Source of the DNA: Candidatus Thorarchaeota archaeon | GTDB lineage: Archaea; Asgardarchaeota; Heimdallarchaeia; Hodarchaeales; Hodarchaeaceae | Length of the DNA: 8,963 nt | Reading direction: 5' to 3' | Assembly (NCBI GenBank): GCA_048882505.1 | Contig: JBHLRO010000048.1 | Coordinates: forward strand, 1-8,963 | Part shown: positions 490-8,963 of the stretch, one piece after another | How the letters are laid out: every line of letters begins with the position of its first letter | Position numbering within the stretch: the stretch's first letter is position 1 | Notes under the pieces: generated by a model | Seen by the model: the letters and a program-made list of their open reading frames with translations, nothing else | Told to the model about the DNA's origin: nothing | Database searches by the model: none | Made by a program: the position numbers and the translations under genes

Positions 490-528
490 CTAACTCTTCT
501 ATCCAACACTTGCTGTAACAACGTAGCC

Positions 529-608
529 AGACATCAGATCGCTCCATTTCCACTGACTCTCCTCATCTGTTCGTCTCTTGCCTCCTAATCCTATCTGCCG
601 ATTGGGCC
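529..608 (+). repeat. Dispersed bipartite repeat, copy A (complete)
   Basis: Left arm AGACATCAGATCGCTCCATTT (529-549), pyrimidine-rich middle, right core TCCTAATCCTATCTGCCGATTGGGCC (583-608). Confidence 0.9.
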
Positions 609-741
609 ACAATAATCGGGATATTTTTGCTCCTACACCTTTGTTCCCTTCTAGATTATTACGATCTTCTCTAAACGATTTCAATAGAAGTAAAAGATAC
701 TCTCAAAATATAAACCAATCCCTCTCCAACGATTATTGTGG
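607..741. repeat. 135-nt segment bounded by a perfect 12-bp inverted repeat (possible MITE)
   Basis: CCACAATAATCG (607-618) is the exact reverse complement of CGATTATTGTGG (730-741). No target-site duplication seen. Confidence 0.4.
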
Positions 742-2219: not shown

Positions 2220-2281
2220 AAAATGGAACTTCGACCACTTTTCTATGAAATTTCCTAAATGCACCTTGAAATGGCAGTTAA

Positions 2282-2325
2282 TCCTAATCCTATCTGACGA
2301 TCGGCCTACTCACTTCAAAACGATT
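2282..2325 (+). repeat. Dispersed repeat, copy B (right core plus extension; left arm degenerate or absent)
   Basis: TCCTAATCCTATCTGACGATCGGCCTACTCACTTCAAAACGATT; 35/44 identical to copy D by manual count. Confidence 0.9.
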
Positions 2326-2391: not shown

Positions 2392-3018
2392 ATGAAAATT
2401 AACAAGCTTTGGTATAGTAAGGACTCAAATGTATGGACTAACGCATTGGATAACTACTGGAGTTATATTAAACCCTCGAACATGGCGCTAGAGCGAGAAT
2501 TAGACTCACTGGATCCAATTATTGTAAGCAGAATTAATGTTTCAGAGTTTTACGCCTTTTTGCTACATAAATATTTTAAATGGAAGTATACCGCTCCTCA
2601 CAGGTATGCAAGTACAACGAAATTCCTTAAGCAGTACCCAAGCGGTACGATGTCTGATCTTGGCAAAATCAAAGAAGCTTTATTTCAATTTGACAAAAAT
2701 GATATCAAGAATGGATTGAAAATAGCTAATAAGATACGGGGATTAGGCCCTGCTGGTGCCTCGGGACTGCTGGCATTATTATTCCCCCAATACTATAGCA
2801 CTGTTGATCAGTTCGTGGTCAAAGCATTATCTGAGATTACGGATCTCCCCCAAAGAACTTTGATAATGAGAATGAAACCCGAATCATTGAGCTTGAAGGA
2901 TGGAGCTTTATTAATTCAGATAATGCGGGATAAAGCTAAAGCACTCAATACCGCTTTTAACACGAATTTTTGGACTCCCAGAAAAGTAGATATGGTGCTA
3001 TGGACCTATGGTAGGTAA
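2392..3018 (+). CDS. HhH-GPD-fold DNA glycosylase-like protein
   Basis: Helix-hairpin-helix IRGLGPAGASGLLALL followed by STVDQFV (VD motif carrying the conserved Asp), and C-terminal TPRKVDMVLW. GGGGT upstream of the ATG. Confidence 0.65.
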   Translation: MKINKLWYSKDSNVWTNALDNYWSYIKPSNMALERELDSLDPIIVSRINVSEFYAFLLHKYFKWKYTAPHRYASTTKFLKQYPSGTMSDLGKIKEALFQFDKNDIKNGLKIANKIRGLGPAGASGLLALLFPQYYSTVDQFVVKALSEITDLPQRTLIMRMKPESLSLKDGALLIQIMRDKAKALNTAFNTNFWTPRKVDMVLWTYGR

Positions 3019-3091
3019 AAATGGTAGCTTCAGGTTCCAACAAACTTCTCGATGAAGCAGGTGCTGAAAGCATCAAAAATTAATACATAAG

Positions 3092-3108
3092 CATCAGACC
3101 GACCCATT
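3092..3108 (+). repeat. Orphan left arm of the dispersed repeat
   Basis: CATCAGACCGACCCATT is 14/17 identical to copy A (532-548), and the three differences match copies F and G. Preceded by AAAAAT as in E, F and G. No right core follows at the expected distance. Confidence 0.7.
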
Positions 3109-3517
3109 AGATACTAGAGGGATTAAACCACGTTACGCCGCTAGAATTAATTTTTCGTTCTATTTCAAGGCGGTACATTCTATATTTGACGACGAAATTT
3201 GCCAGGTAAAATGCAAAAGCAAAGACCAGGAATACTGAAAAAAACGTTAAATTTCCAATCAAATTTTGAAGATTTGACCCTAGATATTCGTATAATACTA
3301 GAATAAGATTTAAGGAACTGGCAAGGATTGTTACCTTAGAAAAAGCCAATGATTCGAATCTTTTTCGAAATGTTGATCTTTTGTATAAGGGAATTGTAAC
3401 CTTCCAAAAATGATCTTTATAGATAAAGACTGAAAAAATGGAGAGAAGTAGAGTCACCGCGACATACCCAGTCATCTCTATTTGAAACGCAAAGAGTACC
3501 AGGACTATCGTACTCAT
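3107..3517 (-). CDS. Small membrane protein, 3 or more hydrophobic segments (5' end uncertain; start may be ATG 3475)
   Basis: Hydrophobic segments YVAVTLLLSIFSVFIY, VTILASSLNLILVLY and LTFFSVFLVFAFAFYLANFVV. Its stop overlaps the orphan repeat arm, and its 5' end overlaps the GTPase C-half head-to-head. Confidence 0.6.
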   Translation of the reverse strand: MSTIVLVLFAFQIEMTGYVAVTLLLSIFSVFIYKDHFWKVTIPLYKRSTFRKRFESLAFSKVTILASSLNLILVLYEYLGSNLQNLIGNLTFFSVFLVFAFAFYLANFVVKYRMYRLEIERKINSSGVTWFNPSSI

Positions 3518-3850
3518 ATCCTCAATCAGGACATCCCAATATATTTGGTTGGCTGTAAAGGCCTTCTACATAATAAAGCCAAAAGCAAATCATTCCGAAA
3601 GAAGACATTGAAATGGTTAGAGGAAAAAGCGGTCCGTTATGAGGTTGCTGAGGCCATAGACTTAGTAACCGGGGATTTCACGGAAAAGAAAAGTGCATGT
3701 TCAGGTGACGCGGTTTCAATGTCTGAAGGCAAGGAACAAGCAGCTAGGATGGGGGCAGCATATTACGAGGTCAATGTTTGGACAGATGGCCCATTGATTG
3801 AAGAAATCTTTCACGAGATTGTAAATAACCTACCAAAAACCAAGGGTTGA
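3482..3850 (+). pseudogene. C-terminal half of a degenerate Rab/Ras-like small GTPase
   Basis: DIPIYLVGCK (beta5/G4 region, canonical xPxxLVGNKxD), VSMSEGKEQAARMGAAYYEV (alpha4/beta6/G5) and IEEIFHEIV (alpha5). No P-loop. TTG start without SD, and an in-frame stop at 3449. Confidence 0.65.
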
Positions 3851-3892
3851 GGAAGTGAGGATGCTAAGAGGGGTCATAGATACCTTCATCGA

Positions 3893-3970
3893 GCTGTTCT
3901 AGAAAGGAACAGTCCAATCGTCAGATAGGATTAGTATAGATAAGACTTATCGAAAGGTAGAGGAGTGGGG
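3893..3970 (-). repeat. Dispersed repeat, copy C (middle plus right core, inverted; left arm missing)
   Basis: Reverse complement reads CCCCACTCCTCTACCTTTCGAT...ACTAATCCTATCTGACGATTGGACTGTTCCTTTCTAGAACAGC. 29-nt perfect match (3900-3928) to copy E (5439-5467); the middle CCTCTACCT-TTCGAT is shared with copy G. Confidence 0.9.
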
Positions 3971-4174
3971 CATCCAAGGAGCCTCCTGGCCTTTATTTGT
4001 TGAAATCCTAATATCTGCCATGTTCTGTTCGCGATAATAAACATCGAAATCAAGGGTGAATTCTACTCCTGTTCTAAATTCTGGTTCTTGAGTCAACTCT
4101 CGGAGAAATTTTGATTTCAATGAAGGAGGGCCCCCTACCGTTAGAACTCGTACAAATTGTTCGTTTTTGGCCAT
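3947..4174 (-). pseudogene. N-terminal half of a degenerate Rab/Ras-like small GTPase, truncated just after G3
   Basis: Likely start ATG 4174 with GAGGAG SD at 4185-4190. VRVLTVGGPPSLKS (degenerate G1), RTGVEF (Rab-like TxGVEF effector motif), ISTNKGQE (cf. WDTAGQE). The last codons (PHSSTFR*) are read from repeat copy C. Confidence 0.6.
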
Positions 4175-4325
4175 TTGGGTGCCACTCCTCGTTCTATTAC
4201 TCACCTAAAGGCGATCTGTTTCTTTTCCAGAGAAGACATAGGGGTAGATATCCCCTTTAAGAGTCCTTCATTCTAGGCCTTTCTACCAAAAATCCTGTTA
4301 CAATTACCTGTTTATTGGCTCTGTA

Positions 4326-4369
4326 TCCTCATCCGATCTGACAATCCGACCACTCGTTTCAACACGATT
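4326..4369 (+). repeat. Dispersed repeat, copy D (degenerate right core plus extension)
   Basis: TCCTCATCCGATCTGACAATCCGACCACTCGTTTCAACACGATT aligns without gaps to copies B and F. Confidence 0.75.
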
Positions 4370-4574
4370 CGTCCATGTAAGTATCTCAAGTTCAAACCGT
4401 AGCATACGGCTTATTTTCTGGGGCCTACCAGATCAAACATTCGCTGTATATCGGGAGCAATATTCATATTAATAATGGTCTTCTTACTCTGTTCCATCAT
4501 TTTCCTGTATTGATGGGCAACGGATCTAGTAATTGATTGAATATTGTGGAAGTAATTCATTTCCTCACGAATAA

Positions 4575-4985
4575 TTAGTATCGATACTCTTTAACTCTCA
4601 GATTCTGGATAGATGGTAAATCTTTCTCGGTAGTATGAAGAACAAGGCTTTCATTCAGTACATATGCAATGACTAAACAATCAAAGTACGAAAGTATTCT
4701 TCTATATTGACACTTTAATCCTCCTGCCTTCAGGATTATATCATTTGATAACGATACAAATATTACTGGATAATTCTTCTGGAAAGCACTTACGCTTGAT
4801 TCAGCAAAGGATTTCCCGTTGGCTATACATAAATGCTTGAATACTTCAACTAAAATCGGAAAAATAACATAAGCTTCAGTTTTTTGTTGTTTAATATCAT
4901 TCATGAGGCTTGTTATTTCTTTAGGCTCGTCCTTAGTAAAGTGAAGTGTGATAGGCCCTGTATCAAGACAGATTCTCCCAGGCAT
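4575..4985 (-). CDS. vapC: PIN-domain toxin (VapC family)
   Basis: N-terminal ICLDTG, ILVEV, LSYFDCLVIAYVLNESLVLHTTEKD follow the PIN acidic-residue pattern. ATG overlaps the antitoxin stop (TAATG at 4983-4987). Confidence 0.9.
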   Translation of the reverse strand: MPGRICLDTGPITLHFTKDEPKEITSLMNDIKQQKTEAYVIFPILVEVFKHLCIANGKSFAESSVSAFQKNYPVIFVSLSNDIILKAGGLKCQYRRILSYFDCLVIAYVLNESLVLHTTEKDLPSIQNLRVKEYRY

Positions 4986-5224
4986 TATTTTTCTAACTCC
5001 AGTTCGGCTTCCCTAGATCTTTTCAGGATTTCCAGCATTTGTTTTGTAGTAATAGATCGCTTTTGGAGAGTTTTAATACTCTCAAGTGGAATGATTTTCA
5101 ACATTCCTTCATCCTCTACGACGATAACTTGATCTCCATCTTGCAGGCCATATTTTCTCCTTAAACTAGCCGGAATAGTAACCATCCCACGATTGGTAAC
5201 TTTCACGATCCTATCAAGCGTCAA
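4985..5224 (-). CDS. vapB: AbrB/MazE/SpoVT-family antitoxin (VapB)
   Basis: IVKVTNRGMVTIPASLRRKYGLQDGDQV is the classic AbrB swapped-hairpin signature. TTG start with AAGTGAT upstream; translationally coupled to vapC. Confidence 0.9.
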   Translation of the reverse strand: MTLDRIVKVTNRGMVTIPASLRRKYGLQDGDQVIVVEDEGMLKIIPLESIKTLQKRSITTKQMLEILKRSREAELELEK

Positions 5225-5265: not shown

Positions 5266-5377
5266 GATTTATGCTTAGAGTTTGGCCATCTTTTGTTCCT
5301 TTTTTTTTCTATCTTTTTGAATTATCGGGGGTATGCGATATAGGACAACCTAGAAAAACCAGGAAAAAATGATCAAC

Positions 5378-5474
5378 AGACATCAGATGGCTCCATTTCC
5401 CCTGTTTTTCCACGATTGTCCTTTTTTCTATCCTAACACTATCTGACGATTGGACTGTTCCTTTCTAACATAGC
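5378..5474 (+). repeat. Dispersed repeat, copy E (complete)
   Basis: Left arm AGACATCAGATGGCTCCATTT (5378-5398); right core TCCTAACACTATCTGACGATTGGACTGTTCCTTTCTA (5431-5467). Confidence 0.9.
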
Positions 5475-5520: not shown

Positions 5521-5832
5521 TCATATGAAAGAGTGATCATAATTCTTCACTCCTAAAAAGGTGATAAGTGAAATCATTTCTTCCCATCCTTGTTTTCGAA
5601 CTTTTCCCCTAATGAAAGATCCTCCTTTCTCGTTTAGGGTTCGCTTTATTGGAAGAAAGAAAGGTCCGTAATTTAGCTTATACGCATTTACACAAATATC
5701 TCTATAGTCATCAGTTTCATGCACAATTTCGAATTTTATCAGAATAGCTCCATGACCAAAGAGATGACTAAGGATCCCTCCTCTCTTTATTTTTATAAAG
5801 CCGCAGTCATTGATATCGGGTTCTTTTAAAAA
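5521..5832 (-). pseudogene. Start-less open frame, possibly the 3' remnant of an unknown gene
   Basis: The frame of track ORF 5521..5724 stays open to 5832 (...CGFIKIKRGGILSHLFGHGAILIKFEIVHETDDYRD...) with no ATG/GTG/TTG upstream of 5724, and overlaps the FG-GAP stop. Confidence 0.4.
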
Positions 5833-7435
5833 TTAGTAGTATTGAAATTAACCCGAGACTAAGTAAAGTGGGCATTAATGAAATTGAACTAGCCTGAGTT
5901 AAGATTAATACTGGAAATGGATATAGAACCATATAACTTTTCCCTGCCCTAACTCCACTGTCCCCATTCCATTTTGCACCGATAATAAAGTCATTGAATC
6001 CATCTTTATTTACATCGCCAGTTCCAGAAACAGAACTACCAAACAGATCATTCTGTGATTCTCCTGTAAAGGTAGCATTAGCTTCAGAAATGGGTGTATC
6101 CATCTCCCATTGTTCAGTAGTTTGGCCAAGAAAAAGGTAAGCTCGACCAGCATCGACTCCACCCTTGTCATTTCGATTTGCTGTAATAATGAAATCATCT
6201 AGGTTATCCCCGTTTGTATCACCCAATCCCGCTCCTGACCATCCTGCTTGATCTCCTGCCGCTTCTCCGATAAATGAGGCATCCGCTGCTGATAAGCTCA
6301 TATCCATGTTCCATTCCGTCGTCTCACGCCCAAGAAAGAGATAAATCTGACCAGCAGTATCCCCTCCTTCATCGTTACCAATTGCGCCAATGATAAAGTC
6401 ATCATACCCATCATTATTTACGTCCCCAGCACCAGAAACACTATTCCCTAATTCATCCCGTGCGTTTTCTCCGATAAATGATGCATCAACTCCTGAAAGA
6501 TCCACATCCAAATGCCATTCGCCCGTTGCACGCCCAAAAATAAGATAAGCTTGTCCAGCAAAAGACCCTCCTTCATCGTTACCCCCTGCCCCAATCATAA
6601 TATCATCATAATCATCATTATTGATATCCCCTACAATCTCTATATTAATTCCTACCTCATCATCTGGTTCTTCTCCGATAAATGAGGCATCTGCCGCTGA
6701 TAAGCTCATATCCATGCTCCAATCCGTCGTCTCACGCCCAAGAAAGAGATAAACCTGACCAGCATTATCTCCCCCTTCATCGTTACCAGGTGCGCCAATA
6801 ACAATGTCATCATACCCATCATTATTTACGTCCCCAGCACCAGAAATACCTGTTAATGTATCTCCAGTAGTTGCAATAAATGAGGCATCCGCCGCTGATA
6901 AGCTCATATCCATGCTCCATTCCGTCGTCTCACGCCCAAGAAAGAGATAAATCTGACCAGCATTATCCCCTCCTTCATCATTTAATGGTGCGCTAATCGC
7001 TAAATCATCATAATCGTCATTATTAACATTTCCTATCCCAGAGACTTCAAATCCAGACCAATCACCGCTTGCTTCACCAATTAACGAAGCATCTGCATCC
7101 GCTAAAGACGGATCAGCATTCCATAATTCTGTATCTCGACCGAATACAAGATATGTCTGCCCCGTATTTGCTCCTCCTTCATCATTAAATAGCGCACTAA
7201 TCGCAAAATCATCAAATCCATCATTATTAACATCTCCTGTGATAGTCACATCCGATCCTGACCAATCTTCCTCAAATTCTCCAGTATATTCGACAACTCT
7301 GACATCATCGTGAATTGCATAGGCTCGAACACTGCCATTGGAAACAGATAGAGAATTTTGAAATTGTAAAATAGTCGTTTGAAAGAAGCTTAAAAATAGA
7401 AGAATAATGATAAACAAAAATCTAGAGGTTCTCAT
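5807..7435 (-). CDS. Cell-surface FG-GAP (integrin-alpha-like) seven-bladed beta-propeller protein
   Basis: N-terminal signal peptide (MRTSRFLFIIILLFLSFF). Seven repeats of G(D/N)xNxDxxxD...A...G..Y, with DxNxDGxDD-type Ca-binding loops and ~68-aa period. C-terminal TM plus basic tail (LMPTLLSLGLISILLIFKRTRYQ). GGTG SD at 7443-7446. Confidence 0.9.
   Translation of the reverse strand: MRTSRFLFIIILLFLSFFQTTILQFQNSLSVSNGSVRAYAIHDDVRVVEYTGEFEEDWSGSDVTITGDVNNDGFDDFAISALFNDEGGANTGQTYLVFGRDTELWNADPSLADADASLIGEASGDWSGFEVSGIGNVNNDDYDDLAISAPLNDEGGDNAGQIYLFLGRETTEWSMDMSLSAADASFIATTGDTLTGISGAGDVNNDGYDDIVIGAPGNDEGGDNAGQVYLFLGRETTDWSMDMSLSAADASFIGEEPDDEVGINIEIVGDINNDDYDDIMIGAGGNDEGGSFAGQAYLIFGRATGEWHLDVDLSGVDASFIGENARDELGNSVSGAGDVNNDGYDDFIIGAIGNDEGGDTAGQIYLFLGRETTEWNMDMSLSAADASFIGEAAGDQAGWSGAGLGDTNGDNLDDFIITANRNDKGGVDAGRAYLFLGQTTEQWEMDTPISEANATFTGESQNDLFGSSVSGTGDVNKDGFNDFIIGAKWNGDSGVRAGKSYMVLYPFPVLILTQASSISLMPTLLSLGLISILLIFKRTRYQ
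6263..6979. repeat. Near-identical intragenic blade repeats inside the FG-GAP gene
   Basis: 6263-6438 vs 6671-6846: 163/176 identical. 6270-6373 vs 6876-6979: 101/104 identical (manual counts). Blade period 204 nt, with one interval of 198 nt. Confidence 0.9.
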
Positions 7436-7647: not shown

Positions 7648-7733
7648 CTAAAAAGGAAATAGGGTCACTTGTTCACTAAAATTTCAAGAAAAATGGTGAT
7701 TTTATTAACGGATACTCAAAAATGATTGACTAC

Positions 7734-7828
7734 AGTCACCAGACCGCTCCTCCATTTCTATGCTCCTTCAATTGTTCTTCTTTCTCCTAATCCTATCTGA
7801 CGATCGGACCGCTCGTGTCTGAAGACAG
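7734..7828 (+). repeat. Dispersed repeat, copy F (complete)
   Basis: Left arm AGTCACCAGACCGCTCC (7734-7750); right core TCCTAATCCTATCTGACGATCGGACCGCTCGTGTC (7785-7819). Confidence 0.9.
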
Positions 7829-8873: not shown

Positions 8874-8890
8874 CAGAGAAAAAATTCAAC

Positions 8891-8963
8891 AGACACCAAA
8901 TCGACCCGTTCCCCCTCTACCTCTTCGATTGCATTTGAATTGTCTCCTAACACTATCTGACGA
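8891..8963 (+). repeat. Dispersed repeat, copy G (cut by the window end)
   Basis: Left arm AGACACCAAATCGACCCGTT (8891-8910); right core TCCTAACACTATCTGACGA (8945-8963). Begins 17 nt after the TIM-barrel stop. Confidence 0.9.

Follow-up and report, generated by a model that had tools for sequence, protein, structure and literature searches.

A probable inversion scar in a 23S rRNA trailer repeat within a variable gene block of a Hodarchaeales-type Asgard archaeon

In Archaea, the leader and trailer of the pre-rRNA pair into a processing stem, a helix with a bulge-helix-bulge motif (PMC8339473, a review; PMC7038931, a study). Integron cassette arrays, which involve attC x attC or attI sites and IntI, are also known from archaeal genomes (Ghaly et al. 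2022, PMC9668308). A further system for comparison is provided by stacks of displaced gene ends, as in the tandem accretion of integrated elements at the 3' ends of tRNA and other genes and in the displacement of C-termini in rhs/cdi loci. A full-text search of the literature returned no paper linking copies of the rRNA processing stem with gene cassettes. The aloposons of Heimdallarchaeum (PMC8813620) were considered for comparison and set aside: they integrate at tRNAs, carry giant genes and offer no parallel.

The window, by which we mean the whole stretch of DNA analysed (8,963 nucleotides), is the entire contig C48 of an assembly of 4.3 Mb in 83 contigs, with a completeness of 94.55% and an estimated contamination of 3.7%. 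The assembly represents a Hodarchaeales-type Asgard archaeon, and C48 belongs to a variable block where orphan copies of the 23S rRNA trailer, all in one orientation, stand between unrelated genes (Table 1). Near the middle of the window this order is disturbed. The explanation that we consider the likeliest, and hold with moderate confidence, is an inversion scar, in which ~860 bases were flipped by homology-poor joining and both one repeat copy and an apparent GTPase gene were cut.

Table 1. Positions of repeat copies, repeat and gene pieces, and other features in the window
Feature	Position	Strand	Description
Copy A	528-611	+	Full (profile)
Copy B	2261-2313	+	Right part; left arm degenerate
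Orphan left arm	3092-3108	+	Distal end of a trailer copy, model 6-22; ends at junction J1 (3108/3109)
AT-rich filler (S2)	3109-3466		GC 33% (0.332); no Ras signal, paralogue or homologue
Putative GTPase C piece	~3467-3850	+	alpha3, degenerate G4, insertion, C-terminal part; called ORF 3482-3850
Copy C	3903-3970	-	Model 23-90, without left arm; ends at junction J3 (3970/3971)
Putative GTPase N piece	3971-4174	-	beta1, degenerate P-loop, G3-like KGQE; within ORF 3947-4204
Copy D	4319-4359	+	Recognisable right part only
VapBC-like toxin-antitoxin pair	4575-5224	-	Occupies the D-E cassette
PIN-domain ORF	4575-4985	-	Toxin of the VapBC-like pair
MazE/AbrB-type antitoxin ORF	4985-5224	-	Partner of the PIN-domain ORF
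Copy E	5376-5463	+	Full
FG-GAP repeat protein	5807-7435		542 residues; 7 Pfam repeats
Copy F	7732-7817	+	Full
Copy G	8890-8963	+	Cut by contig end

A repeat family derived from the 23S rRNA trailer

Reading and comparison of the sequence identified seven copies of a repeat of ~95 nt in the window, and a profile built from these copies and iterated on the genome recovered 31 copies genome-wide. The copies are confined to contigs C45, C47, C48, C52, C59 and C81, one stretch of C20 and one site on C38. On every contig they share one orientation, with copy C (profile match 3957-3904) as the sole exception, and modules of gene size bounded by the repeats recur in varied combinations across contigs. 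Alignment of 18 full copies showed that the repeat has three parts: a conserved left arm (consensus CAGACATCAGACCGCTCC), a variable middle rich in pyrimidines, and a conserved right arm which begins TCCTAATCCTATCTGACGATTGGAC. The left arm is recognisable in all but about a quarter of the copies. Where it is missing, similarity is lost at model position ~11, ~20, ~27 or ~57 (near position 20 in copy C52_5547), and one copy on C20 consists of the left part only.

The repeat is a copy of the trailer strand of 23S rRNA, one side of the archaeal pre-rRNA processing stem. Orphan 23S 3' ends of ~310 nt (LSU model positions 2721-2973) are present at C52:7081-7391 and C45:1819-2129, and ~17 nt beyond each lies a repeat copy in reverse complement. 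The copy on C38 lies directly 5' of the 5' end of a 23S gene, and is therefore the leader. Pairing between leader and trailer spans their full length: the C38 leader and the C52 trailer cofolded at -86.7 kcal/mol, compared with -48.7 +/- 3.6 kcal/mol for shuffled trailers (n=100). Copy E and copy C, the latter rebuilt as described below, gave -73.9 and -72.7 kcal/mol with the same leader. The right arm in the window copies is the trailer version and not the leader version, and what the earlier note had called the left arm is the far end of the 23S trailer. Folded by itself, the repeat gave no sign of structure. RNAalifold on the 18 full copies predicted 0 pairs, single-strand DNA folds of four copies, on both strands, had z scores of +0.1 to +1.1 relative to shuffles, and Rfam, searched with the window at E<=1, gave no family. 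We rejected attC identity of the repeat on these folding results and the lack of an IntI match above the cut-off.

Several further observations concern the repeat units and their surroundings. In copy A and other full copies the left arm resembles part of the right arm in direct orientation (CAGACCGCTCCTTT vs TTGGACTGCTCGTTT), and in copies without a left arm the right arm itself is the best match to a left arm. Just outside the left arm, a flank of ~27 nt (CTTACCCTCAATCAGATCAGCGGT...) is common to five copies, and a second upstream flank (TCCAACACT.GCTGTAAC.ACGTA...) is common to four, both groups being among the repeat copies on C45, C47, C52 and contig L009. As each group with a shared flank joins different downstream cassettes, the repeat units form sub-families that extend past the trailer. 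The orphan 23S ends on C52 and C45 sit inside arrays, where some units consist of a partial gene plus trailer. A full-length 23S rRNA gene is present at C57:307-3242. Its identity with the C38 partial 23S is only ~75-84%, and the repeat profile, run over the whole genome, had no match in its flanks; this gene may come from another organism binned into the assembly, for which contamination is estimated at 3.7%. At the left end of the window, positions 1-602 (a zinc-ribbon membrane ORF with copy A) are 95% identical to C47:8377-8978 on the opposite strand. Duplication of the cassette or the presence of a second strain would account for this match, and the near-duplicate is probably the cause of the assembly break here. 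The FG-GAP repeat protein has a hydrophobic segment at its N-terminus and a hydrophobic tail at its C-terminus, and its gene is made of five DNA repeats of ~200 nt that are 62-100% identical.

Repeat halves and GTPase-like pieces around 3109-3970

The earlier note, made from the letters of the window alone, described an orphan left arm on the forward strand and a copy without a left arm starting at 3970 on the reverse strand. Both were read directly in the sequence and confirmed with the profile. Positions 3092-3108 (+) read CATCAGACCGACCCATT. Taken as its reverse complement, 3970-3892 opens with CCCCACTCCTC and continues into a good right arm. Copy C alone aligns at model positions 33-89, and its first 13 bases (3958-3970) reach positions 23-32 only when the orphan is joined to it. 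The joined sequence gives a single full-length profile match (model 6-90) of 44.8 bits, compared with 33.1 bits for copy C and 3.8 bits for the orphan apart. The halves meet at model position 22/23 with no gap and no overlap, and the starts of the two arms then lie 55 apart, which is the mode of the family and the spacing in copies A and G. The proposal that joining the halves rebuilds a full element with the spacing of A and G was thus borne out. So was the proposal that flipping the segment brings all copies in the window into one orientation, copy C being the only reversed copy of the 31.

We also considered how often a left arm occurs by itself. A degenerate 14-mer (CATCAGAYCGMYCC) had 12 matches in the genome on both strands, 11 of them in recognised copies and one at the orphan, and a control with the reversed pattern had 0. 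The orphan is therefore not a chance match, and orphan left arms are not common genome-wide; the earlier note had named a common occurrence of such arms as speaking against its proposal. The evidential weight lies in the exact complementarity of the two halves; the missing left arm of copy C is not in itself unusual.

Two pieces with similarity to small GTPases lie on opposite strands within and beside the segment. By reading, the reverse-strand ORF at 3947-4204 resembles a small GTPase over about its initial third. This similarity extends to codon 3973-3971, after which the frame enters copy C for 9 codons and then stops. The G1, G3 and G4 motifs are degenerate, also by reading. The C piece matched Pfam Ras at positions 82-160 with E=0.004 and 17.1 bits, below the curated cut-off of 21.6, and the N piece had no Pfam match even at E<=10. 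When 45 Ras-family genes of the same genome were made into a profile, the score of the C piece was reached by 0 of 2000 shuffles (empirical p <0.0005) and that of the N piece by 16 of 2000 (empirical p ~0.008). In a protein-feature atlas, the ten best Pfam-bearing matches of the N piece all belonged to one family or clan, small GTPase, and the best matches of the C piece were to the Ras family, with scores <0.9 that make them a lead only. The two pieces are alike in GC content (0.423 for N, 0.427 for C) and in sense-strand purine content (0.573 and 0.578). Homologue searches returned only the piece itself for C and, among 1.8 billion representatives, itself and two repetitive, unrelated-looking proteins for N. 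About 30 GTPase residues, from switch II to beta4, are missing between them.

An inversion that breaks a gene is expected to leave complementary pieces that face each other, one of them stopping where the repeat is cut, as the N piece does. Judged by their sequences, the N and C pieces are apparently one small GTPase gene cut in two in this way. The assignment of the N piece to the GTPases is tentative, and the two pieces could come from different genes.

Flipping 3109-3970 back would make the repeat whole but not the GTPase, as the N piece would then read '...APWM-RY-stop'. Ras similarity on the forward strand begins only at ~3467-3494, at position ~95 of the own-genome profile, which leaves ~360 bases (3109-3466) without explanation and ~30 residues missing. 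A further event or a complex repair must therefore be assumed. These bases hold most of a membrane-like orphan ORF (3107-3517, -), for which a homologue search returned only the ORF itself. The own-genome Ras profile found nothing in this filler, blastn of the window against its own genome found no second copy of it, and no terminal repeats surround it. Two candidates for the missing GTPase sequence were rejected: a second N-terminus hidden in 3109-3451, with an alignment score of 26 that was reached by 118 of 300 shuffles and a blank in the Ras profile, and strings resembling beta4 and switch II at ~3355-3430, noticed by eye, which lack profile support and contain stops. The event is complex and not a clean inversion, in line with a remark on 'inversion plus deletion' in the earlier note. 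The data agree equally with three histories: the gene received an insertion before the inversion; the repeat received one, and only 3467-3970 was then inverted; or a single untidy repair captured filler DNA. In a second sample from the same study, we observed a contig of 197 nt at depth 2.8 that is identical to 3170-3366 within the filler and to nothing else in the stretch examined, and that probably represents the same organism at low abundance.

The proposed joining event and its alternatives

The order of events and the mechanism of joining are inferred from this scar as follows. The ancestor would have carried a complete repeat copy, with the left arm at 3092-3108 followed directly by the present 3970 down to 3892, and behind that repeat a cassette whose minus strand encoded a divergent Ras-like GTPase. 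One break would have split the repeat at model position 22/23, and the other would have fallen in the GTPase gene, past the G3 motif. The intervening piece would then have been rejoined in reverse, presumably by end joining that used no homology. An untidy repair would account for the ~360 AT-rich bases between left arm and C piece and for the loss of ~30 GTPase residues. The outcome would be a fixed scar with two dead GTPase fragments, and no programmed switch.

Among the alternatives, the one that holds up best is two unrelated decay events with a coincidental fit of the halves. On this account the arm at 3092 lost its right part to other DNA, and copy C is a fragment that was separately acquired or inverted and that lost its own left arm. 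Left arms are unrecognisable in about a quarter of copies, one C20 copy retains its left part only, and the 360-base filler directly abuts the left arm. A nearest-neighbour concordance test did not place the orphan and the middle part of copy C with one relative. However, with arbitrary truncation points a junction at model 22/23 with the modal spacing would arise by chance in an estimated few per cent of cases, and an inversion would still be needed to explain the lone reversal of copy C and the facing GTPase pieces of equal composition. We therefore regard independent decay as unlikely, while leaving it some weight.

A chimera of assembly or library, with the arrangement absent from the cell, has to be considered in a block that is rich in repeats, where the assembly breaks at repeat copies and where both available assemblies come from the same run. 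Against this, a Logan contig of 5791 nt (depth 27.5) from the probable source run covers 2500-4800 with zero differences, so that a second assembler reproduces 2.3 kb over all junctions. Chimeric reads would not reach full depth. No repeated 31-mer, searched genome-wide, lies within ~70 nt of any junction, and repeated shorter words near the junctions occur only in the right-arm core at 3900-3934; a de Bruijn assembler thus has nothing to mis-join there. The inverted segment is unique sequence and not a fold-back duplicate. An assembly artefact is unlikely, and a chimera of either kind appears improbable. The contigs contain only one orientation; the Logan and deposited assemblies rest on the same reads, and contigs drop rare variants and cannot show a minority orientation.

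Searches for an un-inverted allele, which covered relatives, the genome itself and public contigs, found none. In 40 relatives, 2900-4400 matched nothing but one right-arm-like sequence in G016. The 25-nt right-arm core, with <=3 mismatches allowed, was absent from the same 40 relatives. Blastn of the window against its own genome, run for a paralogue, returned only the repeat copies and the 95% duplicate of 1-602 on C47, and exact-protein look-ups returned only the Logan contig from the probable source run. A 24-nt query for the junction expected before inversion was absent from JGI metagenome contigs, and the right-arm core (21 nt) from metagenome_contigs and genome_contigs.

The earlier note had gone on from the inversion to infer strand exchange within the element, just after the left arm, and hence a role for the repeat as a recombination site. 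In such a scheme a recombinase or nuclease of an integron-like system would cut the repeat after its left arm and react aberrantly with a site in the GTPase gene. One breakpoint does lie at the border of the conserved left arm and the variable middle, similarity in C52_5547 is lost close to the same point, and the repeats bound gene-sized modules that recur in varied combinations. The other breakpoint does not fit. It lies in a gene, the profile found no repeat-like sequence outside 3971 even at E<=100, and by reading its inverted orientation is unlike the crossover region. The truncation points of other copies vary from model ~11 to ~57 and give no sign of a fixed crossover point. The products are two half copies, each joined to non-repeat DNA, where a legitimate exchange between inverted copies would leave two whole ones. 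No inverted repeat joins the ends of 3109-3970, no terminal inverted repeats were found in 3060-4060, and microhomology flanking the segment, by reading, is <=2 nt. The repeat forms no hairpin and has an ordinary origin as 23S trailer.

The best match to the integron integrase model TIGR02249 scored 76.9 bits against a cut-off of 265, in an assembly that, at 94.55% completeness, may miss some genes. This match, on C5, is the sole tyrosine recombinase in the assembly, an Xer-like protein with SAM_1 and Phage_integrase domains. There was no match to the Resolvase family of serine recombinases in the genome, and no recognisable recombinase or transposase among the ten window ORFs scanned against Pfam. 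Three related candidates were examined and rejected. A degenerate forward-strand repeat copy at 3971-4040 had no profile match at E<=100, and an 18-mer shared there was an unrelated match on C15. A microhomology or inverted pair between the left arm and 3971-3989 agreed, by reading, with the actual orphan at 4 of 8 positions, not a significant number. Transposon-mediated inversion was set aside in view of the missing terminal inverted repeats, second filler copy and transposase match.

The inversion proposed earlier thus gained support from the complementary halves, the co-orientation that a flip restores, the split Ras-like gene and the spanning assembly, and the step from there to a dedicated recombination site did not, with the other breakpoint in a gene, no flanking inverted repeats, no hairpin, a trailer origin and scattered truncations. 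We give a recombination-site origin a low probability, on a par with a chimera. Slightly less credible still is the specific proposal that the model 22/23 border is the crossover point of an enzyme that builds the cassette block, with the inversion as its rare off-target product; if true, it would mean recombinase-driven, integron-like gene capture in the archaeal lineage closest to eukaryotes. A programmed switch that inverts 3109-3970 to turn a gene on and off, which the short segment, the repeat-derived boundary and ORFs on both strands might bring to mind, is most improbable, given that there are no inverted repeats at the ends and no invertase, that the GTPase is intact in neither orientation, and that contigs show a single form, though contigs drop rare variants.

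Comparison with known systems

By itself the inversion matters little. It would be one more scar in a fast-changing region, at the cost of a gene whose sequence was already degenerate in appearance. It shows that the block is reshuffled by untidy, homology-poor events besides whatever adds cassettes. It also removes apparent evidence for a dedicated recombination site, and cautions against an integron-type reading of cassette repeats in Asgard archaea. We consider the inversion an ordinary kind of event that left a real scar; the ~30 orphan trailer copies that surround it are more unusual.

In its form the scar resembles inversions by illegitimate end joining. In both, breaks fall in unrelated sequences, the segment between them is reversed and features are truncated on both sides; the joined ends share <=2 nt, and one junction contains additional DNA. 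It differs from them in that the mechanism here is deduced from the scar alone. To our knowledge, there are no studies of end-joining repair in the Asgard archaea.

The repeat shares with processing stems that its reverse complement follows orphan 23S 3' ends and that the trailer pairs with the pre-23S leader. Unlike in those stems, ~30 copies lie far from rRNA genes and have no leader partner, so that the stem cannot form.

With integron arrays the block shares co-oriented repeats of ~90 nt that separate modules of one or two genes of unrelated function, including a toxin-antitoxin pair. It differs from them in having no hairpin, no pairing of R''/R' cores and no IntI, and in that the repeat is a 23S trailer. 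In addition, attC x attC recombination between inverted sites would leave two whole sites, whereas two halves are found here.

The target in this block is a strand of the rRNA processing stem and no integrase is linked to it, which sets it apart from stacks of displaced gene ends. As in those stacks, copies of the end of one gene (23S plus trailer), all on the same strand, bound inserted accessory DNA. Two units carry 310 nt of 23S and most start in the trailer, so that the near boundary varies and the far boundary is sharp. The block appears closer to stacks of displaced gene ends than to an integron array.
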